NCBI GenBank assembly: GCA_963727485.1 | Contig: CAVSGM010000003.1 | Location: forward strand, 96,001 to 160,000 | Direction of reading: 5' to 3' | Length of the DNA: 64,000 nt | Source: an uncultured delta proteobacterium | GTDB lineage: Bacteria > Myxococcota > Myxococcia > SLRQ01 | Shown here: positions 1 through 15,359 of the stretch, piece after piece | Numbering within the stretch: the first letter of the stretch is position 1 | Layout of the letters: each line of letters begins with the position of its first letter | Position numbers and translations under genes: made by a program | The notes under the pieces: model-generated | Databases searched by the model: none | Seen by the model: the letters and a program-made list of their open reading frames with translations, nothing else | Told to the model about the DNA's origin: nothing

Positions 1-264
1 GACGGTGCCGTTGACCATCTCGGTGCCGAAGCGCTCGGCCTGCTTGCGGAAGAGCTCCATGAGGTCCGGGCCCATCACCCCCTCGGGGAACCCGGGGTAG
101 TTCTCCACGTCGGTGGTGATGGTGAGCTGGCCGCCGGGCTGGATGCCGTCGACCAGGATGGGCTCGAGGTTGGCGCGGGCGGCATAGACCGCGGCGGTGT
201 AGCCGGCGGGACCGGAGCCGATGATGGCGACCTTCCGGACGCCGTCCTTCGGAGTGCTGGACAT
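1..264 (-). CDS. trxB: thioredoxin-disulfide reductase, 5' part (runs off the window start)
   Basis: Manual translation gives [62 protein letters not shown], the classic TrxB N-terminus; GGGAG RBS upstream. Confidence 0.95.
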
Positions 265-360
265 GAGGATCTGCTCCCAGAATGCGGGGGGTTGTCGGTT
301 TGGCCCCCTGGGATATCACACCGGAGGCCGTGTTATAGTCCGGTATAAGCCCCCGAACGG

Positions 361-823
361 ATGGACGCCTCCGCCCTCAAGCAGATCGAGCTCTTCAACG
401 GGCTCACCCACCGCCACCTCGAGGCGTTGGCGTCGATCACCGAAGATCGCACCCACGACGCCGGCACCCGGCTCTTCGCCGAGGGGGACGCCGGAGACGA
501 GCTGTTCATGGTCCTCAAGGGCAAGGTCCGGATCTCCAAGATTGTCGAGGGGGTGGGCGAGGAGGCCCTGGCCATCCTCGAGCCCGGCGCCTACTTCGGC
601 GAGATGGCCCTGGTCAGTGATCTCCCCCGGTCCGCCCACGCCACCTGCAACACCCCGGTGGAGGTGGGCGTCATCCGCCGGGAGGCCTTCGAGCAGCTCC
701 TCTTCCTCGACAAGGATTCTCGCCTACGAGCTGCTCTGGACCTTCGTGCGCACGCTGTCCCGGCGGCTGGCCGAGACCAACGACAAGATCAAGGCGTTCT
801 TCGCCATGTCGAGCCGCTTCTAA
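361..823 (+). CDS. stand-alone cyclic nucleotide-binding domain protein (apparent +1 frameshift at 717-718)
   Basis: LFAEGDAGDELFMVLKGKV...GAYFGEMAL...PRSA cNMP motifs; removing one T from GATTC (715-719) joins FLDKD to LAYELLWTFVRTLSRRL, giving about 153 aa. Confidence 0.85.
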
Positions 824-917
824 GGAGGGGCCCCCGGGCCCCCCACAGGTAAGGTCGGACCACGGGAGCCCAAACGGGCCTTCCAGGTAGACTCCGCCAC
901 CCCGCAAGGCCTGCATC

Positions 918-3122
918 ATGACGTTCCAGCTCGTCCTCGCCGTGGTCCTCCTGCTCGTCGTCGCCGGTGCCGGCGTCGCCGTGATGGCCTCACTGCGCAA
1001 GAAGCGCGAGGCCAAGGATACCGCTGCCTTCCACGCCTCCCGGGAGCGTGAGCTCCACATCCCGGTGTCGCTCCACCCGGTCATCGACCCGGACATCTGC
1101 ATCGGGAGTCTCGCCTGCATCCGGGCCTGCCCCGAGGGTGACATCCTGGGCATCGTGGAGGGGACGGCGCGGCTCATCGAGGGAGCCAAGTGCATCGGCC
1201 ACGGGCGCTGCGCCGAGGAGTGCCCGGTGGACGCCATCAAGCTGGTCTTCGGCTCCGGCGAGCGCGGGGTCGACCTCCCCAGCCTCGCCGCCGGCTTCGA
1301 GACCAGCCGCCCCGGGGTCCACATCGTGGGCGAGCTCGGGGGCATGGGGCTCATCAAGAACGCCATCGCCCAGGGGGTGCAGGTCGTCGACCACCTGGCC
1401 AAGACCGTCGCCAACCCCGGCAACGGGGCCACCGACGTGGCCATCGTCGGCGCCGGGCCCGCCGGGCTCGCCGCCGCCGCCGCCTGCCGCACCCACGGCC
1501 TCTCCTTCCGCCTCCTGGAGCAGCACACCCTCGGCGGCGCCGTGGCCCACTACCCGCGCCAGAAGCTGGTGATGACCGAGTCGGTGGAGGTCCCCGGCTA
1601 CGGGCGCATCGGCAAGAAGACCCTCCGCAAGGAGGAGATCCTCGAGACCTTCCAGGACCTGGCCACCACCACCGGGGTGACGGTCGAGGAGGGGGTGAAG
1701 GTCGAGTCCCTCGAGGGCGACCTCGACCGCTTCGTCCTCCACACCACCCAGGGCACCGTGCAGGCCCGGCGGGTGGTGCTGGCGGTGGGCCGCCGGGGCA
1801 CCCCGCGCAAGCTGGGCGTCCCCGGCGAGGAGCTCGACAAGGTCACCTACGGCCTCATCGACCCCGACCAGTACGAAGGCAAGCGGGTGATGGTCATCGG
1901 CGGTGGCGACAGCGCCATCGAGGCGGCGGTGATGCTCGCCGAGGACACCGGGGCCGAGGTCTCAATCTCCTACCGCGGCCCCGCCTTCGCCCGCTGCCGC
2001 CCCGCCAACCGGGAGGCCATCGAGCGGATGGTGGACGCGGGGCGGATCCACGCCTTCATGAGCTCCAACGTGCGGGCCATCGAGGACGACGCCGTCCTCA
2101 TCGACGTCGGCGGGCGCCAGGCCTGGCTCGCCAACGAGTACGTCATCGTCAACATCGGGGGCGAGCTCCCCTTCGCGTTCCTGGAGAACGTGGGCGTCGA
2201 GGTCAAGCGCCACCACGGCGAGGACCGGGGCTTCAAGCCCGGGGTCGACTTCGACCAGGAGGAGAAGGCCAGCCGCCGGCTCAACCTCAGCCTCTTCGGC
2301 GTCGGCGCGGCGATCATCGCCTTCCTCGCCATCGTCGGCTGGAGCTACTACCTCATCCCCGTCGACCTGCGGCCCAACTCGCCCCTGGACGCGGCCCTCA
2401 AGCCGTCGGGGTGGTGGGGGCACGGCGTGGGCATCGTGGCCACCGGGTTCATGATGCTCAACTTCCTCTACGCGGGCCGCAAGCGCCTCAAGTTCCTGAA
2501 CCGGGGGAAGCTGCGCAACTGGCTCTCCTTCCACATGTTCGTGGGGTTCATGGCGCCCCTGGTCATCGTGTTCCACGCCGCCTTCCAGTCCCGGAACCTG
2601 CTGGCGACGGTGACCGCGGTGTCGCTGGGGATCGTGGTCGCCACCGGCATCATCGGCCGCTTCCTCTTCGGCCTGGTGCCCACCAGCAAGGGCAAGGCGG
2701 TGGAGCTCGCCACCCTGCGCAGCCGCTGGGAGCGCCACCGCTCGCGGATCACCAACCTGATGGCGGCCTCGGCCTCGCGCCTCGAGGCGCGCAAGCTTCT
2801 GGCCTGGGCCACCACCGAGCTCCCCGACGACGTCACCCTCACCCGCCACCTGCTGGAGATGCCCGGGGAGCTGACCCGGGCCTGGAAGGGCCTGAACGCC
2901 GCGAGGCCGCTGTTCGGCGAGGCCGAGCACTTCAAGGACTTCCGCAACGGCTACCTGCGCCTCCTGCTGATGCGGACCCAGGTGGGCTTCTACAAGAGCC
3001 TCAAGCGCCTGATGGGGGTGTGGCGGATTCTCCACGTGGCCCTGGCCGTCCTCATGGTATTCGTCATCGCCGCCCACATCGGCGTGTCCCTCTACATCGG
3101 CTACACGTGGATCTTCCACTGA
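918..3122 (+). CDS. membrane-anchored ferredoxin + TrxR-like FAD/NAD(P)H oxidoreductase + di-heme b transmembrane fusion protein
   Basis: N-terminal TM helix followed by RKKR; CIGSLACIRACP and CIGHGRCAEECP; GAGPAG, GGGDSA and SYR motifs; C-terminal TM helices with two H-x13-H pairs (FHMFVGFMAPLVIVFH, LHVALAVLMVFVIAAH). Confidence 0.85.
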   Translation: MTFQLVLAVVLLLVVAGAGVAVMASLRKKREAKDTAAFHASRERELHIPVSLHPVIDPDICIGSLACIRACPEGDILGIVEGTARLIEGAKCIGHGRCAEECPVDAIKLVFGSGERGVDLPSLAAGFETSRPGVHIVGELGGMGLIKNAIAQGVQVVDHLAKTVANPGNGATDVAIVGAGPAGLAAAAACRTHGLSFRLLEQHTLGGAVAHYPRQKLVMTESVEVPGYGRIGKKTLRKEEILETFQDLATTTGVTVEEGVKVESLEGDLDRFVLHTTQGTVQARRVVLAVGRRGTPRKLGVPGEELDKVTYGLIDPDQYEGKRVMVIGGGDSAIEAAVMLAEDTGAEVSISYRGPAFARCRPANREAIERMVDAGRIHAFMSSNVRAIEDDAVLIDVGGRQAWLANEYVIVNIGGELPFAFLENVGVEVKRHHGEDRGFKPGVDFDQEEKASRRLNLSLFGVGAAIIAFLAIVGWSYYLIPVDLRPNSPLDAALKPSGWWGHGVGIVATGFMMLNFLYAGRKRLKFLNRGKLRNWLSFHMFVGFMAPLVIVFHAAFQSRNLLATVTAVSLGIVVATGIIGRFLFGLVPTSKGKAVELATLRSRWERHRSRITNLMAASASRLEARKLLAWATTELPDDVTLTRHLLEMPGELTRAWKGLNAARPLFGEAEHFKDFRNGYLRLLLMRTQVGFYKSLKRLMGVWRILHVALAVLMVFVIAAHIGVSLYIGYTWIFH

Positions 3123-5662
3123 CCCCAAGGGCCACCCGCCTGCTGGCGGGCGCGGCGGCGGTCCTCTGCCTCTGGGCGACGCCCGGCGTGGCGCGGGCGC
3201 AGATCCTCTCCCCGGGGAAGCTGGCCGAGGTCCACAAGCACCTCGAGGGGCTCACCAACTGCACCAAGTGCCACGGCGGCGGGTCGGCGGTCTCCGAGCC
3301 CCGGTGCCTCGCCTGCCACACCCTGGTGCGCAGCCGGGTGAAGGCCGGCAAGGGCCTCCACGGGCGGCTCTCCACCAAGCAGCTCGCCTGCGAGAAGTGC
3401 CACACCGACCACCGGGGCCGGGACGCCAACATCATCAAGTGGGGCGCCGGGGGCGAGAACGGCTTCGACCACGCGCGCGCCGGGTGGCCGCTCACCGGGG
3501 GCCACAAGAAGGTCGACTGCAAGCAGTGCCACACCCGAAGGCTCATCGTGCAGCTCGACGTGAAGCAGTACCTGGCCAAGCACCCCAGGATGCACACCTG
3601 GCTGGGGCTCTCCCAGCGCTGCGCCAGCTGCCACTTCGACGAGCACCGGGGCCAGGAGTCCACCAACTGCGCGCTGTGCCACGACACCAAGAAGTGGATC
3701 CCGGCGCCGCTGTTCAACCATGACAAGACCGCCTACAAGCTCCGGGGCAAGCACCGCCGCGTGGCCTGCGTGAAGTGCCACGCCCGGAAGGCCGACACCA
3801 CCACCCCCGCCGACGCCTTCCCCAAGCCGGTGAAGCAGGACTACGAGGTCTTCAAGCCCGTCAAGCACGCCCGGTGCCTCGACTGCCACGCCGACCCCCA
3901 CAAGGGGAAGTTCGGGCTGAACTGCGAGGGCTGCCACACGGTCAACGGGTGGAAGATCATGAAGGCGAGCGTCAACAAGATCGCCTTCCACCAGAAGACC
4001 CGGTTCCCCCTCGTCGGCGCCCACCTCACCGTGAGCTGCCGCGCCTGCCACGGGCCCTTCCCCGGGCAGAAGGCCGTCTTCCGGGGGCTGCCGTTCAAGC
4101 GCTGCACCGACTGCCACGCCGACGCCCACCAGGGGCAGACCGGCAAGCTCGACTGCGACGCCTGCCACACCCTCTCCAGCTTCTCCCCGGCGAAGTTCAG
4201 CATCGCCGACCACGCCAAGAAGACCGACTACCCGCTGGAGGGCGCCCACGCGGCGGTGGCCTGCAACCTCTGCCACACCCCGAACCGGCGCCTGCTGCGC
4301 CAGGTGAGCTGGCGGGTCAAGCGCAAGCTCAAGCGGGAGCGGCGGCCGCTCCTGGTCAGCGACATGCGCCTCTCGATCCCCAAGCGGGATCGCAAGTGCC
4401 TCTCGTGCCACCTCAACCCCCACGGCCACCAGCTCGACGACGCCATCCGCAAGCACGGGTGCATCGAGTGCCACGTGGTCAAGGACTGGCACGACGTCAG
4501 CCGCTTCGACCACGACACCGAGAGCCGCTTCCCCTTGAACGGCGGCCACGCCAAGGTGGCCTGCGGCAAGTGCCACTTCCAGAAGGTGAAGATCGCCGGC
4601 AAGCTTCAGATCCTCTACCGGCCCCTGTCGATGGAGTGCGAGAGCTGCCACACCGACGTCCACCTGGGGCAGTTCCAGGGCACCGCCAAGAGCCGCTGCG
4701 TCGACTGCCACACGGTGAAGACCTGGAAGGTGACCAGGTTCGTCCACCGGCCGCCGTTCACCCGGTACACCCTCACGGGAGCCCACGCGAAGCTCAAGTG
4801 CGCCGCCTGCCACGTGCCCATCCGGGTCGACGGCCACCAGGCGGTGCGCTACCGCCCCCTGCCCTCGAAGTGCGAGGGGTGCCACGCCGACTTCCACCAC
4901 GGGGCCTTCGCGAGCCTGAAGATGAAGGGCGTGAAGCAGGGCGCCGGCTGCGCCGCCTGCCACACGGTCAAGAGCTGGTCCGACGCCACCTTCGACCACG
5001 ACCCCACCGGCTTCCCCCTCGAGGGCGCGCACCGGACGGCGAGCTGCTGGGGCTGCCACATGAAGGACCTCTCGGCGCCGATCCCCAAGACCTGCAGCGG
5101 CTGCCACAAGGATCCCCACGCCGGCCAGCTCGGCACCCAGTGCGACACCTGCCACGACGAGTCCACCTGGAAGTCGAGCTTCGGGCCGGTGCAGCACGCG
5201 CGCACCGGCTTCCCCCTCACCGGGCGCCACGCGACCATCCCCTGCCAGGAGTGCCACTTCGAGGCGCGCAACCAGACCTTCAGCCGGGTCAGCCCCAGCT
5301 GCTACGGCTGCCACCGCGCCGACTTCAACCGGGCCGCCACCGTCTCCATCGACCACGTGAAGGCGGGCTTCTCCCACGACTGCGCCCAGTGCCACTCCAC
5401 CTGGGCCTGGACCCCGGCGGCGTTCCCCGGCCACGACACCTGCTTCCTCATCAGCGGCGGGCCCCACGACCGGATCACCTGCCGGGGCTGCCACACCTCC
5501 CTGACCGGGGCGACCATCACCGGGGCCTGCAACTCGGGCACCTACACCTGCGTGCGCTGCCACGCCCACGACAAGACGCGGTCCGATGCGCAGCACCAGA
5601 ACGTCCCCGGCTACCAGTACAAGGACCAGAAGTGCTACGAGTGCCACAAGTTCGCGGGGTAG
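3119..5662 (+). CDS. secreted 30-heme cytochrome c built from triheme repeats (start uncertain: CTG 3119 or GTG 3107)
   Basis: 30 CxxCH motifs counted by hand; signal peptide ending VARA-Q; repeated H..FPLxGxH..CxxCH units; the upstream part of ORF 1190..5662 is only a shadow frame. Confidence 0.9.
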   Translation: MTPRATRLLAGAAAVLCLWATPGVARAQILSPGKLAEVHKHLEGLTNCTKCHGGGSAVSEPRCLACHTLVRSRVKAGKGLHGRLSTKQLACEKCHTDHRGRDANIIKWGAGGENGFDHARAGWPLTGGHKKVDCKQCHTRRLIVQLDVKQYLAKHPRMHTWLGLSQRCASCHFDEHRGQESTNCALCHDTKKWIPAPLFNHDKTAYKLRGKHRRVACVKCHARKADTTTPADAFPKPVKQDYEVFKPVKHARCLDCHADPHKGKFGLNCEGCHTVNGWKIMKASVNKIAFHQKTRFPLVGAHLTVSCRACHGPFPGQKAVFRGLPFKRCTDCHADAHQGQTGKLDCDACHTLSSFSPAKFSIADHAKKTDYPLEGAHAAVACNLCHTPNRRLLRQVSWRVKRKLKRERRPLLVSDMRLSIPKRDRKCLSCHLNPHGHQLDDAIRKHGCIECHVVKDWHDVSRFDHDTESRFPLNGGHAKVACGKCHFQKVKIAGKLQILYRPLSMECESCHTDVHLGQFQGTAKSRCVDCHTVKTWKVTRFVHRPPFTRYTLTGAHAKLKCAACHVPIRVDGHQAVRYRPLPSKCEGCHADFHHGAFASLKMKGVKQGAGCAACHTVKSWSDATFDHDPTGFPLEGAHRTASCWGCHMKDLSAPIPKTCSGCHKDPHAGQLGTQCDTCHDESTWKSSFGPVQHARTGFPLTGRHATIPCQECHFEARNQTFSRVSPSCYGCHRADFNRAATVSIDHVKAGFSHDCAQCHSTWAWTPAAFPGHDTCFLISGGPHDRITCRGCHTSLTGATITGACNSGTYTCVRCHAHDKTRSDAQHQNVPGYQYKDQKCYECHKFAG

Positions 5663-5741
5663 GCGTCTTGACCACACGCGTCCTTACAACGGCGCCGGAT
5701 CGGCTGACGGACGGCGGCGCAACCAGGGATAATCACGCCTG

Positions 5742-6575
5742 ATGCGTCGCCTCGCCCCACGCGTCCTGGTGCTCGCCTGCGCCGGGGTCCTCCTCGCCGC
5801 CGCCGCCTGCGGTGACGCCGGGGACAACCGCCACACCAACCACTGGCTCACGGCCCTGACGCCGTCGGACCACGCGACCTGGTTCCCCATCGACTCCGGT
5901 GCCCACAAGGGGATGGACTGCAACCTCTGCCACGGCAGCTTCGACAGCTTCAAGGGCTTCAGCTGCACCGGGTGCCACGCCCACGACCAGTCGGTCACCG
6001 ACCCCCTCCACAGCGGGGTCCCCGGCTACAGCTACGGGCCCACCACCTGCTACATGTGCCACAAGAACGGCACGGTGCGCTTCGACCTCGCCCAGCACCA
6101 GAAGGCCTTCCCCATCGGGGACGGCACGCCCCATGCCACCGAGGCCTGCAGCGACTGCCACAGCGACTCCAGCCGCCTCGGCGAGGTGGCCTTCGTCACC
6201 TGCGGCAGCTGCCACGCCCACAGCCAGGCCAAAACCGATCCCTTCCACAACCAGCCCAAGGACGGGGGCGCCCCGGTGGGCCAGATCTACGCCTGGGGCG
6301 TGAACACCTGCATCCAGTGCCACCTCGACGGGCGCATGCTCCTGCGCGCCGACCACACCCCGCAGGCGACCTACAACGGCAACAACGTCGCCATGGGACC
6401 GCACCTCCAGGGCGCCATGTGCGCCGACTGCCACCTCACGCGAGACTTCAAGACCTTCACCTGTGGCCCCTGCCACGACCCCGGGGGCTTCGCCGCGGAG
6501 AAGACCGCGGCCTGCGACACCGCCAAGGGCTCAGCGTGCACCGATCTCGAGAAGTACAACTACTTCTACAAGTGA
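5742..6575 (+). CDS. octaheme cytochrome c lipoprotein
   Basis: Lipobox LAAAA-C; eight CxxCH motifs (CNLCH, CTGCH, CYMCH, CSDCH, CGSCH, CIQCH, CADCH, CGPCH). Confidence 0.9.
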   Translation: MRRLAPRVLVLACAGVLLAAAACGDAGDNRHTNHWLTALTPSDHATWFPIDSGAHKGMDCNLCHGSFDSFKGFSCTGCHAHDQSVTDPLHSGVPGYSYGPTTCYMCHKNGTVRFDLAQHQKAFPIGDGTPHATEACSDCHSDSSRLGEVAFVTCGSCHAHSQAKTDPFHNQPKDGGAPVGQIYAWGVNTCIQCHLDGRMLLRADHTPQATYNGNNVAMGPHLQGAMCADCHLTRDFKTFTCGPCHDPGGFAAEKTAACDTAKGSACTDLEKYNYFYK

Positions 6576-8174
6576 CACCGGTGCGGGCGCTGGGCCTCTG
6601 CGTGATCCTCGGGTTGATGGTGACGGGTCACCCGGCTCATGCCGGACGGGGCCGGGTCACCTACGCCACCGAGCACTGGGCGTTCCTCGACCAGGGGCGC
6701 GCCGACGGCCTGGTCGACGGGCGGCGGGTGGCGCTGGTCCGCCACGGCCATCGGGTGGGACGGTGCCGGGTCGAGCACGTGGCCGAGCACCACGCCGCCT
6801 GCGCCATGCGCGGGGCCCGGTCCGGAGATCTGGCGGTGTTCCGGGGGCGGGCGCCCCGGCCCCAGCGGGAGGCGCTGGGCAAGCCCCCGGCGCCGGTGTC
6901 CCGGGCGGTGGCCCGGCACTTCGCGCGGCTGCGCATCGCCCGGGTGCCCTTCCGGGGGACCTTTGGCGCCGGGAACCTCACGGGGATGGCCCTCGCCGTG
7001 GACGTCCAGCACCAGAGCTGGGTGGGGCTGGCGGCCACCGCCACCCGCTACCACCGCGAGTCGGTGGAGATCTCGCTTGCGGGGATCCCCATCTGGAACG
7101 GGTTCACCGCCTCCGCCGACGCCACGGTGGCCTGGTGGCCCGACCGCCCCAGCAACACCCGCTACCGCCCCGACACCCCGCTCCAGCTCTTCGTGTGGCA
7201 GACCGCGGTGACCCGCCGGGCCCCCGGCGGCCTGACCCTCTCCGCCGGGCGCTTCGTGCCCTGGCACACCCCGGGGCTCACGCTGCTCGACGGGGTGCAG
7301 GCCGGGTGGGCGCCCGCGTCGGGGACCGCCGAGGTGGGCCTCTACGCCGGGACGCTGCCGGACATCATGACCCTGGCTCCGTCCACCAGCCAGTGGACCA
7401 CCGGCGCCTACTTCTCCCAGCGGCTCGGGACCAACCAGGCCTTCCGCTTCAGCTACGAGGGCCGCCTCGCCTTCACCCACTACGCCAACGACCCGGCCCG
7501 GGTGGAGACCGAGGTGGTCACCTCCACGGACATCGGCTCGGCGGTCTCCGCGGACCTCGACCTGCGCCTGGCCCTGGTGGGCCAGACCCAGCCGGCGCCG
7601 GGGGTGGACGCCTTCCGGGGGTCGGTGACGGTGCGGCCGGCCGACGGGATCTCGGTGCGCGCCGGGTACCGGTACCTCTCGCCGTTTGCCGCCGACGCCG
7701 ACGCCCTCTTCGCCTGGAACGTCCCCGGGAGCCGGCACCTGTCGGCCTCGGTCTCCTGGGCCCTGTCCCCGGACCTGACCCTGGGGGTCGACGGCGACGG
7801 CGCCTGGATCCTCGACCAGGTGAGCACCACCCGCGCCGACATCGGGCCCTCCGTGGACTTCCCCCACCTCTTCGGGGAGCACGGCGGGGTCTCCCTGGGC
7901 GTGCGCGAGGGCTTCGGGTGGACCGGCGGGCCGGTGGCCTGGGCCCAGGCGATTCTGGTCGCCCCACCGGGGCTTCCACCTGATGCTCCGCGGCGACTAC
8001 ATGTCCACCACCTTCGTGGGGCGCGTGGGCGATCGGCTCCAGGAGGGCGGGCTCTACGGGAGCGTGGACTTCGACCTCACCCGGACCCTCTCGGCGCGGC
8101 TCGCCCTGGGCGGGCGCGGGGGGTTCGGGACCGGGGCGATCACCGCGAACGCCGGGATCACCGGGCGCTTCTAG
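6572..8174 (+). CDS. probable outer-membrane beta-barrel protein (apparent +1 frameshift at 7951-7955)
   Basis: GTGA overlap with the upstream stop; signal peptide ending AHA; many amphipathic beta-strands; GATTC->GATC joins WAQAI to WSPHRGFHLMLRGDY and ends ANAGITGRF (terminal Phe, BAM-type signal). Confidence 0.75.
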
Positions 8175-8207
8175 GGCCGGCGGCTCGCCCTGGGCGGCGG
8201 GCGGCGC

Positions 8208-8235
8208 GGCGGTCCGGCGGTCCGGCGGTCCGGCG
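8208..8235 (+). repeat. short tandem repeat (GGCGGTCC)x3
   Basis: Directly visible in the intergenic region after the barrel gene. Confidence 0.7.
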
Positions 8236-8338
8236 TTCGCACGGGTGGTCCGCGGGCCGGTCGCGTCGCCGGGGCCGGGGGCGTCGCGGCGGGCCGGGGG
8301 CGCTGGGCGGGGCCGCGGATCCCGCCGGGCGGCGGGCG

Positions 8339-8354
8339 TGGCATGGGCGCTGCA
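8339..8354 (+). promoter_or_regulatory. putative sigma54 (-24/-12) promoter of radC
   Basis: TGGCATGGGCGCTGCA, GG-N10-GC spacing, just upstream of the ATG at 8371. Confidence 0.55.
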
Positions 8355-8370
8355 CTGCGCCCCGTCCGTG

Positions 8371-9054
8371 ATGAGACCCCTGCCGCTGGTCGACGACCGG
8401 CCCCGGGAGCGCCTGGCGGCGCTCGGGGCCGAAGCCCTCTCCGATCGTGAGCTCCTGGCCCTGGTGCTCGGCGCCGGCGGGGGCGCCGGAGGGCCCGCGG
8501 TGGCGGCCTCGGCGCTCCTGCGGCGCTTCGGCGACCTCCACGGGGTGGAGCGGGCCCGGCCCTCGGAGCTGATGCGGGTCCCGGGCCTCGGCGCCGCCCG
8601 CACCGCGGCGCTGCGGGCGGCCCTGGCCCTCGGCCGGCGGGTGGTCGCCGCCGAGCGGCCCCGGGGCGAGCCGGTGAAGAGCGCCGCCGACGTCCACGCC
8701 CGCCTCTCGCCGGTGCTGCGCCACCACGACCGCGAGGTCTTCGTGGTGGTCCTCCTCGACGTCCGCCACCGGCTCCTGGCCGAGGTCCGGGTCGCCGAGG
8801 GCGGACTCACCGCCTGCGCCATCCATCCGCGCGAGGTCTTCGAGCCGGCGCTCCGGGAGCGGGCGGCGGCGGTGATCTTCGTCCACAACCACCCCAGCGG
8901 CGATCCCACGCCCTCCCACGAGGACCTGGCCCTCACCGCGCGGCTGGTGATCGCCGCCGAGGCCCTCGGGGTCAGGGCCCTCGACCACGTGGTCATCGGC
9001 GACGGGCGCTTCGTCTCCATGGCCGACCGGGGGCTGATGGGGCGCCCGGCTTGA
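8371..9054 (+). CDS. radC: RadC family JAB-domain protein
   Basis: DRPRERL..GAEALSDRELLA N-terminus, HhH motif, HPREVF, HNHPSGDPTPSHED, LDHVVIG. Confidence 0.93.
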   Translation: MRPLPLVDDRPRERLAALGAEALSDRELLALVLGAGGGAGGPAVAASALLRRFGDLHGVERARPSELMRVPGLGAARTAALRAALALGRRVVAAERPRGEPVKSAADVHARLSPVLRHHDREVFVVVLLDVRHRLLAEVRVAEGGLTACAIHPREVFEPALRERAAAVIFVHNHPSGDPTPSHEDLALTARLVIAAEALGVRALDHVVIGDGRFVSMADRGLMGRPA

Positions 9055-13231: not shown

Positions 13232-15160
13232 CTACGGCTGGATCGGCGGGAAGTTCACCCCGCTGCGGTAGAGCTCGAGGCCCACCGGCGAGCGCAGGTG
13301 GCTGGGGTCCGCACCGGCGCCCCCGTAGGCATCGACGGTCACGCTGTAGTAGGTCCCCGGCGCCAGGATCCCCTGGGGGATCCGCATCTCCGGATCCTGG
13401 GTGTAGAGCCAGGCGAGGATGTTGAGGGGGGCGTCCTTCGTGGCGATCGACACCGCGTAGTAGGCAGGGGTGGCGCCGGTGGTGGGCGGCGTCCAGGTGA
13501 TCTGCGGGGTCACGCCCACGGAGGTGAGGACCGCGCCGGTCTGCTGTCCGTTGACCCGGATGTTCGCGACCGCGCCGATCTTGGGGATGATGGCGGCGGT
13601 GCCGGCCTCGGCCAGCGACAGGGTCCCCTGGTAGGACACGTGGGTGTAGTAGTTGAACAACGGCGTGGTGCCGGGCTGGTAGTTCGCCCGGGTGTAGGTG
13701 AAGCTGCACCAGAAGCGCCGGTGCCAGCCGGCCGGGTAGGGGTCCTCGTAGCTCAGGTTCCCGAAGTCCAGGTTGGGGGTGGTGTCGCCGATGGAGGCGG
13801 ACCACACCATCGCCGGGTGGGCCACGAAGGGCGAGGCCATCGGGTCGGCCTGGATGGTCACCGAGCCCTGCCACTCGTGGAGGCTGTCGGGGTCGGAGGG
13901 CGCCGGGACCGTGTCGAACCAGGCCTGGAGCCCGGTGCCATCGATGGACAGGGGCAGGGAGTGGGCGTGGGGCGCGCCCAGGGCCGACATGGCCACCGAG
14001 GTGGTGGTGCTGCTGCCGCTGGCCAGGGCGACCGAGCTCACCGTCCCGGTGCTGGCCATCTGGTAGTCGTAGCGGTTCGTCCCGCGAACCCCGTGGACCT
14101 GGACCAGCCTTGCGGTGTCCGAGCTGGTGAGCAGCGGCTGGTTCTTGAAGTTGAAGGTGGCGTCGCAGCTGGTGGCACCAGAGGTGCTGGGGCCGGTGCC
14201 ACTGTAGAGCTTGGTGATCCCCAGGGTGGGCGCCATGAGGCCGATCCCATCCAGGTTCTGGGTCCACGCCGCCAGCCCGGTGACGTGGGCCACCAGCTGG
14301 GTGTTGTTGGCGCCGGTGGCCAACCCGGGCCGCACCTCGGTGAAGGTGGTGAGGTCCAGGGTGGCGTCGTGGCTGGAGAAGGTGAGGTTGTCGGGGGGCA
14401 GGGTGTAGCGGAGGGTGTAGCTCGGCGACGGCGGCACCCCGGTGGCCCGGATCACGCCCTGGAGGTCCCCGGTGGCGGGGTAGAGGTCGAGGCCGTGGGT
14501 GGCGTTGGGGACGTAGGCGGCCACCATCGCCGAACGGAGGTCGGTGGCCACCGGCGTCCCGCCGCTGGGCGTGTCGTGGATCGTCGCCACCAGCCCGTAG
14601 ACGGTGACGGTGTCGTGGCCGTCGGTGGTCGCGACGAAGCCCGAGCCCAGGCGCACCACCCCGAAGCGCACCTGGCCGCCGGCGACGGTGGCGCCGAGGC
14701 GCTCGAAGCCGGTGCCGGCCGGGTCGGACCAGTAGGCGGCGGCGGTGCCGGCGTCGCCGACCAGGGGCAGGGAGACGGTCACCGGCCGGGTGATCGCCGT
14801 GGCCGCCGGGCCCAGCTGCCAGGTGCGCGCCGTCGAGGTGAACCCGCTCGGCGGCGCGTCCAGGGTGTGGGTCAGGGTGATCTGGGTGTCGGCGGCGAGC
14901 GCCCCCACCGGGAAGGTCACCGTGGCGCCGTCGAGGGTGATCGTGCCCCCGTCGAAGCCGATGGTCTGGGTGGCCTGGGTCTGGGTGGGCCCGGTGCCCC
15001 CGTCGCCCGCGCCGCCGTCGGTGCCGCCGGTGCTCCCGCCATCGGTGCTCCCGCCATCGGTGGTGCCACCGCCATCCGGGTGCCCGCCGGCGGGGCTGGA
15101 GCCGCACGCGGCGGCGAAAAGGGCGATACCGAGGATCACGAGCCAGGGCTTCAGGCGCAT
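13232..15160 (-). CDS. large surface lipoprotein (DGG linker, ZU5-like domain, beta-sandwich/FN3-like C-terminus)
   Basis: GGAG RBS; MRLKPWLVILGIALFAAA-C lipobox; TDGG repeats; TIGFDGGTITLDGATVTFPVGAL ZU5-like start. Confidence 0.75.
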   Translation of the reverse strand: MRLKPWLVILGIALFAAACGSSPAGGHPDGGGTTDGGSTDGGSTGGTDGGAGDGGTGPTQTQATQTIGFDGGTITLDGATVTFPVGALAADTQITLTHTLDAPPSGFTSTARTWQLGPAATAITRPVTVSLPLVGDAGTAAAYWSDPAGTGFERLGATVAGGQVRFGVVRLGSGFVATTDGHDTVTVYGLVATIHDTPSGGTPVATDLRSAMVAAYVPNATHGLDLYPATGDLQGVIRATGVPPSPSYTLRYTLPPDNLTFSSHDATLDLTTFTEVRPGLATGANNTQLVAHVTGLAAWTQNLDGIGLMAPTLGITKLYSGTGPSTSGATSCDATFNFKNQPLLTSSDTARLVQVHGVRGTNRYDYQMASTGTVSSVALASGSSTTTSVAMSALGAPHAHSLPLSIDGTGLQAWFDTVPAPSDPDSLHEWQGSVTIQADPMASPFVAHPAMVWSASIGDTTPNLDFGNLSYEDPYPAGWHRRFWCSFTYTRANYQPGTTPLFNYYTHVSYQGTLSLAEAGTAAIIPKIGAVANIRVNGQQTGAVLTSVGVTPQITWTPPTTGATPAYYAVSIATKDAPLNILAWLYTQDPEMRIPQGILAPGTYYSVTVDAYGGAGADPSHLRSPVGLELYRSGVNFPPIQP

Positions 15161-15359
15161 CTTGCGTCTCCGGGGGTCGTCGGCGGGGCCAAGGGACGAC
15201 GTCGCCGGGTCCCGCCGGTGGCGCACCTCCGCCGACCGACCGTCCCCGACCTCCGCGCCTCCCGCGTGGGTGGACGCCGGCCACCTCAGCCGGCACAGAC
15301 CGAAGCGTGCCAGCCCGCGCCAACCGCGGTCAATACGACTCCCCCGGTCTGGGGAGGCG

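Follow-up and report, generated by a model that had tools for sequence, protein, structure and literature searches.

The first 8.2 kb of a 64,000-nucleotide (nt) stretch of DNA from an uncultured delta proteobacterium (GTDB Myxococcota; SLRQ01; assembly GCA_963727485.1, contig CAVSGM010000003.1), which we refer to as the window, carry a gene set that matches the porin-cytochrome c cluster type PCC3, judged by its published signature and gene content. In this set the inner-membrane protein is fused to an Fe-S/FAD protein, and on balance we think that cytoplasmic NAD(P)H supplies electrons that reach the cell surface by way of two predicted b-haems and 38 c-haems, with no quinone step. A preliminary description of this DNA had presented the system as a candidate conduit that may bypass quinones. 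It is no new kind of conduit, since the set matches a published type; as far as the available text of the literature goes, the new part is the flavoprotein partner, the cluster type itself having been published.

PCC3 and PCC4 were introduced as two putative porin-cytochrome c cluster types (He, Barco, Emerson and Chan 2017, Front Microbiol 8:1584, PMC5566968). According to the available parts of that paper, their inner-membrane protein (IMP) has five helices, of which the third and the fifth carry WX3HX13H and the fourth carries SGXXG. Indeed, the five-helix domain of the fusion protein has the full IMP signature, with Thr replacing Ser (T576-G-I-I-G580). A full-text search, covering the literature outside the supplements of He et al. 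(whose Supplementary Figure 4 gives PCC4 'redox genes' architectures), found no paper linking a flavoprotein to PCC3, and the flavoprotein is unmentioned in the available text of a survey of Gallionellaceae (PMC10734462) and of a 2025 Sideroxydans preprint.

The fusion protein begins with a hydrophobic helix that is followed by basic residues, and continues with an Fe-S domain, a flavin domain and a five-helix membrane domain. An inner-membrane protein combining FAD/NAD(P)H, Fe-S and H-x13-H elements had been claimed, and all of these were found: Pfam places a Fer4 dicluster (Fer4_10) at residues 53-103 and Pyr_redox_3, of the two-Rossmann thioredoxin reductase (TrxR)/YpdA fold, at residues 176-430 (E=1e-42), and the His pairs are H539-x13-H553 and H706-x13-H720. 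The scores were below the cut-offs of both TIGR04018 (YpdA; 155 bits vs 340) and TIGR01292 (TrxR; 73 vs 343). Among 8000 scored sequences, at least 7997 were full-length relatives at E<=0.001; the best are 50-57% identical and, where named, are mostly "NAD(P)-binding domain-containing protein" from Myxococcota metagenome-assembled genomes (MAGs).

In an alignment of 37 relatives of the fusion protein (A1), the residues at the ligand positions of the two ferredoxin-type motifs are invariant, and each motif lacks the usual second Cys. Across 80 related open reading frames (ORFs) from many phyla, the second position of motif 2 is His in 79, and that of motif 1 is Ser in 42, Cys in 24, Thr in 12 and Ala in 2. 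This points to a His-ligated or three-iron cluster that has been kept across phyla. The dinucleotide motifs are also conserved: G178, G180 and G183 of the FAD motif and G328, G330, D331 and A333 of the NAD(P)H motif, together with E335, are invariant in A1, and GxGxxG is present in all 80 related ORFs and GGG[DN]S in 67 of them. A redox-active CxxC is absent, the only Cys conserved in the 37 sequences of A1 being the six Fe-S ligands. The enzyme therefore does not belong to the TrxR-type disulfide reductases.

The solved structure that comes closest, both in sequence and in fold, is YpdA/Bdr (7a76; E=7e-42, Z=20.9); other near structures are thioredoxin reductases, AhpF and TrxR-type ferredoxin-NADP+ reductases (FNR), with 7a7b, 3ab1 and 3lzw in the YpdA/FNR group. 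When the fold search was run with the whole 734-residue model, the matches listed fell on the flavin domain (residues 167-434). The AlphaFold2 (AF2) model of the fusion protein has a mean predicted local distance difference test score (pLDDT) of 77.9, with high values in the flavin domain and values of 75-93 in the membrane domain.

The four His of the membrane domain are invariant in A1, as are W535, T576, G577, G580 and W702. In a second alignment (A6) of 19 sequences, which includes fused and free forms from several phyla, the four His, both Trp and the GxxG are invariant as well. The domain is predicted to hold two bis-His b-haems. Hydropathy gave six helices in all, the N-terminal anchor and five within residues 455-726, and a basic helical insert of about 110 residues separates the fourth and fifth helices of the membrane domain. 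Because basic residues follow the N-terminal helix and there is no export signal, we infer that the N-terminus lies outside and that the Fe-S and flavin domains are cytoplasmic; H539/H706 would be close to the cytoplasmic face and H553/H720 close to the periplasmic one.

No Pfam family came above threshold for the membrane domain (DUF4405, E=0.03), and the clusters nearest to residues 455-734 in a protein-atlas search are without a Pfam family. A PF01794 search of 21 genomes matched other genes and not orthologues of the fusion gene. Free-standing forms of the domain do exist: a hidden Markov model (HMM) of the window-type domain finds free proteins of about 300 amino acids (aa) beside 18-24-haem cytochromes in proteobacterial MAGs. 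A search among shorter proteins gave 70 matches, mostly pieces from contigs of 1-5 kb, among which only P0276, P0340 and P0341 look like whole proteins of about 300 aa.

The gene order was compared in ten loci taken from relatives, 10 of the 40 closest genomes having a full-length or contig-split fusion orthologue. A homologue of the 30-haem gene (43-52% identity) stands directly after the fusion gene in all ten loci, and a barrel homologue (27-34% identity) follows in nine, the tenth stretch having ended too early. Synteny had been expected for all five genes; it held for four, and the gene for the cyclic nucleotide monophosphate (cNMP)-binding protein did not take part in it. Since neither this gene nor the trxB-like gene and radC that flank the locus had a tblastn match in 90 related loci, the cNMP gene is not a member of the conserved set. 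The data support a conserved module made up of the flavoprotein/membrane gene, the giant cytochrome and the barrel.

Co-occurrence was counted in 301 Myxococcota genomes, among them G199, which is flagged as unpublished; these are related and not independent, and we therefore give bare counts. The fusion gene was found in 83 genomes and the barrel profile in 75. By comparison of the tables by hand, 74 genomes have both and one has the barrel alone. In the nine genomes with the flavoprotein only, the match is limited to residues up to about 450. In Myxococcota genomes without the barrel (G074, G076, G094, G103, G111, G134 and G137 among them), frames of about 920-1030 aa match residues ~55-430 only, at 36-38% identity; there, the Fe-S flavoprotein half seems to be joined to a different partner. 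The genome of the window has a single copy each of the fusion gene and the barrel gene. The full-length fusion gene is present in two or three copies in G025 (contigs C10 and C3), G302 (three contigs), G242, G289 and G220; in G025, cytochromes and a barrel gene follow both copies.

The cross-phylum set consisted of the best 80 of 569 confirmed loci, picked by their likeness to the fusion gene and not to the barrel. Among them are MAGs labelled Ignavibacteriota, Bacteroidota, Calditrichaceae, Zixiibacteriota, Acidobacteriota, Gemmatimonadales and Alpha-, Beta- and Gammaproteobacteria. The membrane domain (HMM of residues 460-734) is present in 69 of the 80, fused in 16 and as a separate ORF of about 300-380 aa in 53. 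Both W-x3-H-x13-H motifs occur in 67 of 70 membrane-domain ORFs, and [ST]GxxG lies between the His pairs in 68. A cytochrome with at least 17 haems was found in 63 loci, in 62 of them together with the membrane domain; the nine loci that lack both are for the most part short or break off right next to the gene. The barrel HMM matched 26 of the 80 loci. As it was built from Myxococcota-type sequences, distant porins were probably missed. The order in Bacteroidota and Ignavibacteriota is membrane protein, flavoprotein, 20-haem cytochrome, 13-58-haem cytochrome and barrel, and in Proteobacteria the flavoprotein gene is divergent from the genes for the membrane protein and for two cytochromes with about 18-24 haems. 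The fusion in Myxococcota of genes that are separate and adjacent elsewhere argues that the flavoprotein and the membrane protein act as one unit, and the conservation of the operon speaks for a role of this unit in feeding or otherwise serving the cytochrome-barrel conduit.

The flavoprotein gene of Proteobacteria is not only divergent but sometimes about 4 kb off, so that the coupling could be looser there. This would suit a quinone-coupled system, in which the two-haem domain resembles the anchor of di-haem succinate:quinone reductases or a cytochrome b, the flavoprotein reduces menaquinone or the domain oxidises menaquinol, and the cytochromes are fed as in the CymA/ImcH/CbcL systems. A quinone-active cytochrome b with two b-haems is also the role that He et al. 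proposed for the IMP in the available text of their paper (PMC5566968). Against such coupling speak the gene fusion in Myxococcota and the strict adjacency across phyla, with flavoprotein, membrane domain and large cytochrome together in 62 of the 80 loci. Moreover, a fused cytoplasmic donor makes a quinone step needless, and a quinone-site motif was not identified, although no rigorous search for one was made. We consider quinone coupling quite improbable.

In one locus from an alphaproteobacterial isolate (L080:5728-9966, + strand), a dedicated set of cytochrome c maturation genes, for CcmF, a redoxin, CcmH and a TPR protein of the CcmH/CycH type, lies between the membrane-protein/cytochrome operon and the flavoprotein gene. 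The set is on the strand of the latter, and a similar gap of about 4 kb occurs in other proteobacterial loci. A flavoprotein gene placed directly after ccmF, redoxin, ccmH and ccmI on the same strand could point to biogenesis or maintenance: the flavoprotein/two-haem unit would feed reductant into the periplasm for the maturation or repair (haem or thiol) of giant cytochromes, as Fre-MsrQ feeds MsrP, and would carry no respiratory flux. However, in Myxococcota, Bacteroidota, Ignavibacteriota and others the unit comes first in the cytochrome-barrel operon, where gene ends overlap and ccm genes do not intervene, and its near 1:1 co-occurrence is with the barrel. Such a function is very unlikely in our opinion.

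Both cytochromes of the preliminary description were found, a Sec-exported 30-haem protein and an 8-haem probable lipoprotein. The larger one has a Sec-type signal peptide and 30 CxxCH motifs arranged as ten triplets, at 28 aa per haem, and its 71 His and 6 Met fit bis-His ligation. It corresponds to the gene pair of most relatives, a 20-haem and a 10-haem gene, fused into one: the split form, with a separate signal peptide on the 10-haem protein, is present in 8/9 full loci of relatives, and the fused form in 1/9. The smaller cytochrome has 8 CxxCH and a signal that ends in the lipobox-like LLAAAAC, and is likely a surface lipoprotein. In 4/9 loci of relatives a lipobox cytochrome with 7-11 haems precedes the barrel gene and shares an N-terminal motif with the 8-haem protein. 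The same N-terminal motif occurs in other relatives in lipoprotein cytochromes with 27-29 CxxCH, whose genes lie next to the cluster on its upstream or downstream side. The outer cytochrome of the module thus appears to vary from 7 to 29 haems.

The product of the barrel gene has a signal peptide and a small beta N-domain, in which two Cys are conserved, and continues into a barrel of some 22 strands that ends in Phe. A search of 1.84 billion representatives gave 324 relatives at E<=0.001, typically of 530-580 aa, and 5/7 orthologues end in Tyr or Phe; no Pfam or NCBIfam match was obtained with the pieces of the window copy. For the structural model we used not this frame-broken copy but its closest intact relative, P0123 (52% identical, 535 aa), with 65 aligned sequences. 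The AF2 model (pLDDT 89.4, predicted template modelling score 0.72) shows a beta N-domain, which contains two nearly invariant Cys, followed by 22 strands that begin at residue 144 and extend to the C-terminus. Foldseek matched exclusively outer-membrane barrels. In an exhaustive VIA search, the top matches were 22-strand barrels of TonB-dependent transporters (SusC-like 5t3r, Z 20.0; FyuA, 18.4; BtuB, 17.8), and MtrB (6r2q_B) was lower, with Z 14.1 and a root-mean-square deviation of 7.9 over 338 residues. A 22-strand barrel without a plug would be roomy enough for a haem protein.

A barrel ending in Phe had been predicted from 6572-8174. The barrel fold, seen in the model of the family, and the terminal Phe held up, but these 1603 nt are not one open frame as assembled. 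The gene reads in frame 2 to about 7955 and then in frame 3 to Gly-Arg-Phe-stop at 8174; one frame (window 6584-7966) matches model positions 3-470 of the barrel profile, and the following one (7926-8165) matches positions 457-538 (E=1.2e-8). Likewise, the cNMP-binding domain claimed at 361 is present (PF00027, E=1.4e-21), but the gene is not intact: its frame shifts near 717, and a typical C-terminal helix is carried on in the frame of ORF 221..823. The hexamer GATTCT stands at both breaks (window 715-720 and 7951-7956), and these are two of the six GATTC sites in the 64-kb window.

Both breaks were compared with Logan contigs from public short-read runs, which were aligned to window positions 300-8300, four runs first and X1, X3, X4 and X5 in a second round. 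At 717/718, the contigs have one base fewer in all three cases of coverage (runs X1, X2 and X3). At 7953, the sole covering contig (X2, from a strain about 91% identical) also has one base fewer, and in the second round the near-identical runs X1, X3, X4 and X5 gave no cover there. Since the removal of one base turns each gene into a single frame, we read both breaks as probable assembly errors, for the barrel on the evidence of one contig of a related strain. Conversely, the breaks could be genuine, the module decaying in the present organism and the conduit incomplete here. Both are present in the window as given, and the near-identical runs lack cover at 7953; however, each break is a single extra base in the same GATTCT context, the base is absent from every covering contig, and the downstream barrel frame fits the family profile to its end, with the terminal Phe. 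We thus regard decay as highly improbable. The GATTCT sites may reflect a systematic error of the assembly method that could have hit other genes of the genome. A mis-assembly at every GATC was rejected, as GATC occurs 353 times in the window and GATTC 6 times.

The genes overlap at two points, a sign of coupling. The 8-haem and barrel genes share GTGA at 6572-6575, where the GTG at 6572 starts the barrel and the 8-haem gene stops, exactly as described before. For the fusion and 30-haem genes, the overlap proposed at 3119-3122 is real but the CTG start at 3119 is not the best choice. GTG at 3107 is the likelier start, since the product then has a normal Sec-type signal peptide and since genes start less often with CTG; the overlap is then 16 nt (3107-3122).

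On the reading that we favour, NAD(P)H would reduce FAD in the cytoplasmic flavin domain, and electrons would pass via the two Fe-S clusters to the cytoplasm-side b-haem (H539/H706) and on to the periplasm-side b-haem (H553/H720). They would then enter the N-terminal 20-haem part of the giant cytochrome, which should be long enough to span the periplasm, and its C-terminal 10-haem part would sit inside the barrel. At the surface, the 8-haem lipoprotein would take the electrons and deliver them to Fe(III)/Mn(IV) minerals, humics or partner cells. The NAD(P)H donor, the quinone bypass, the direction of flow, barrel-cytochrome binding and cofactor binding are deduced from the architecture described above. 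Outward flow would be favoured by the membrane potential. As such flow conserves no energy, a redox valve or reductase fits better than a main respiratory route or a coupling site.

Several points weigh against this mechanism, apart from the quinone-coupled role proposed by He et al. Exporting NAD(P)H electrons would waste energy, which one would not expect of a respiratory pathway. Among solved structures, the disulfide reductase YpdA/Bdr, and not a ferredoxin reductase, is nearest to the flavin domain. The YpdA score is below the NCBIfam cut-off, and the Fe-S domain has a pLDDT of only 44-54 in the AF2 model. For the membrane domain, PF01794 (Ferric_reduct) gave 18.9 bits vs a cut-off of 28 (E=0.0016), and hhalign of A6 against eight MsrQ-like proteins of relatives gave a probability of 0.15% (E=0.39). 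The domain may work like a di-haem domain of the NOX type, but from its sequence it cannot be filed in the NOX family. The barrel and cNMP genes are frame-broken as assembled, with the repair at 7953 taken from one related-strain contig. Finally, the 2025 Sideroxydans preprint, in its available text, still treats PCC3 as a functionally unverified set of four genes.

The same wire could also run inward. The membrane potential would drive electrons taken up at the surface, whether from Fe(II), reduced humics, a cathode or a partner cell, through the c- and b-haems to the flavoprotein, where NAD(P)+ or a ferredoxin-like acceptor would be reduced; this would amount to reverse electron flow without quinones. 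The closest solved folds include TrxR-type ferredoxin-NADP+ reductases, enzymes that work reversibly, and the same membrane-protein and flavoprotein genes stand beside 18-24-haem cytochromes in Alpha-, Beta- and Gammaproteobacteria MAGs. In the available text of the sources, PCC3 was defined in Fe(II) oxidisers and is common among them (PMC5566968, PMC10734462), having been described in Gallionellaceae as four genes of unverified function (PMC10734462), and the inner-membrane gene of PCC3 copy 2 is up in iron-oxidising cells (Sideroxydans preprint). On the other hand, nothing in the sequence sets the direction. To our knowledge, every characterised transmembrane system of a flavin and two b-haems (NOX, FRE and Fre-MsrQ) sends electrons outward, and the loci of relatives include Anaeromyxobacter-named MAGs, Anaeromyxobacter being a metal-reducing genus. 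We consider inward flow unlikely.

As a speculation of low probability, the flavoprotein/two-haem unit may be a gate that works in both directions, independently of quinones, and joins the NAD(P)(H) pool to a continuous 40-haem wire, its direction set by the membrane potential: it would spill reductant to minerals when the cell is over-reduced and lift outside electrons to NAD(P)+ when it is energised. If so, the inward mode would be a missing short-cut of NAD(P)H supply for PCC3 iron oxidisers and electron-uptake bacteria in many phyla.

PCC3 clusters are widespread and have been proposed as conduits since 2017, and the published model, in its available text, ties them to quinones. The fusion found here and the constant gene adjacency in other phyla suggest that the wire ends on the inside at a cytoplasmic flavoprotein of the NAD(P)H type. 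If the favoured mechanism is true, the energetic accounting of metal reduction and iron oxidation would change, cells would have a route for redox balancing or for NAD(P)H from extracellular electrons, and the module would be a compact, self-contained set of parts for bioelectrochemical engineering. The contributions of the window to this are a 30-haem cytochrome in fused form, counts of co-occurrence across Myxococcota genomes, a profile comparison with the MsrQ type that was negative, and evidence for the frame breaks being probable assembly errors.

The features are compiled in Table 1. That the five genes are co-oriented was confirmed: all are on the + strand, between the trxB-like gene and radC, and the G+C content over the locus is 67-75%. 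Among frames of at least 120 aa with high G+C at the third codon position, no further multihaem gene was found in the 64-kb window. The window also contains, at 13232-15226 (-), an open frame of 664 aa whose signal end is lipoprotein-like and whose repeats are rich in Gly and Thr.

Table 1 Features of the locus (window positions) and the large lipoprotein cytochromes of related loci (locus:positions)
Feature	Position	Strand	Basis or remark
trxB-like (thioredoxin-reductase-like) gene, divergent, open at window start	1-264	-	upstream flank
Gene for cNMP-binding protein, stand-alone	361..823	+	PF00027 E=1.4e-21; frame-broken near 717
Fe-S/flavin/membrane fusion gene, 734 aa	918..3122	+	Pfam, NCBIfam, AF2 model
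Two ferredoxin-type motifs, three Cys each	1098..1226	+	C61-x2-S64-x2-C67-x3-C71-P; C92-x2-H95-x2-C98-x3-C102-P
Dinucleotide motifs GxGxxG (178-183, FAD) and GGGDSA (328-333, NAD(P)H)	1449..1916	+	invariant columns, A1
Membrane domain, residues 455-734	2280..3119	+	W535-x3-H539-x13-H553, T576-G-I-I-G580, W702-x3-H706-x13-H720
Exported cytochrome c gene, 851 aa, 30 CxxCH	3107..5662	+	CxxCH count, Sec-type signal peptide
Cytochrome c gene, 277 aa, 8 CxxCH	5742..6575	+	CxxCH count, lipobox-like signal end
Outer-membrane barrel gene	6572..8174	+	family profile over two frames; frame-broken near 7953
radC, then recQ	radC 8245-9054		downstream flank
27-29-haem lipoproteins of relatives	L026:1092-4643; L041:6418-9969; L037:16554-20333; L038:16609-20340

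Among known systems, the module is closest in gene content to PCC3. Besides the IMP signature, it shares the 20-haem gene next to the IMP (in 8/9 relatives; here and in one relative this gene is fused with the 10-haem gene to give 30), a further multihaem cytochrome of the putative lipoprotein type, an outer-membrane barrel and a low ratio of residues per haem. In the available text of He et al., the PCC3 periplasmic cytochrome has about 21 (21-27) haems and the extracellular one 10-35 (PMC5566968), whereas the candidate outer cytochrome here, with its lipobox-like end, has 8 and those of relatives 7-29. A further difference from PCC3, as far as this is described in the available text, is the fusion of the IMP with a cytoplasmic Fe-S/FAD/NAD(P)H protein. 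In addition, the 20- and 10-haem parts make up one periplasmic cytochrome here, and the host is Myxococcota-like and not a proteobacterial Fe(II) oxidiser.

The MtrCAB and Geobacter conduits are fed from the quinone pool by CymA/ImcH/CbcL, and we know of no dedicated flavoprotein in them. As here, a barrel, a periplasmic multihaem cytochrome and a lipoprotein cytochrome are encoded together in MtrCAB of Shewanella and in Pcc/Ext of Geobacter (ExtEFG; Jimenez Otero et al. 2018, PMC6148476); ExtG is described there, in the available text, as a dodecahaem cytochrome. However, the proteins of the window do not belong to these families: the 30-haem protein scored 59.1 bits vs a cut-off of 192.2 with TIGR03508 (the DmsE/MtrA model), the barrel is without a Pfam family, and MtrB took a middle rank among its structural matches.

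The logic of the fusion protein is like that of NOX/FRE and bacterial NOX-like enzymes, in which electrons go from cytoplasmic NAD(P)H to a flavin, two stacked bis-His b-haems and an acceptor outside; the His pairs, 13 residues apart on two helices, are the same. The dehydrogenase, however, is of the TrxR/YpdA fold with Fe-S and is N-terminal here, whereas theirs is FNR-like and C-terminal, and the acceptor would be a multihaem cytochrome here instead of O2 or an Fe(III) chelate. With YpdA/Bdr and the TrxR-type ferredoxin-NADP+ reductases the protein shares the two-Rossmann TrxR fold without a CxxC disulfide. Enzymes of the YpdA/Bdr type are soluble and single-domain, whereas the flavin domain of the window has a membrane anchor and an Fe-S domain on one side and a haem-type membrane domain on the other.

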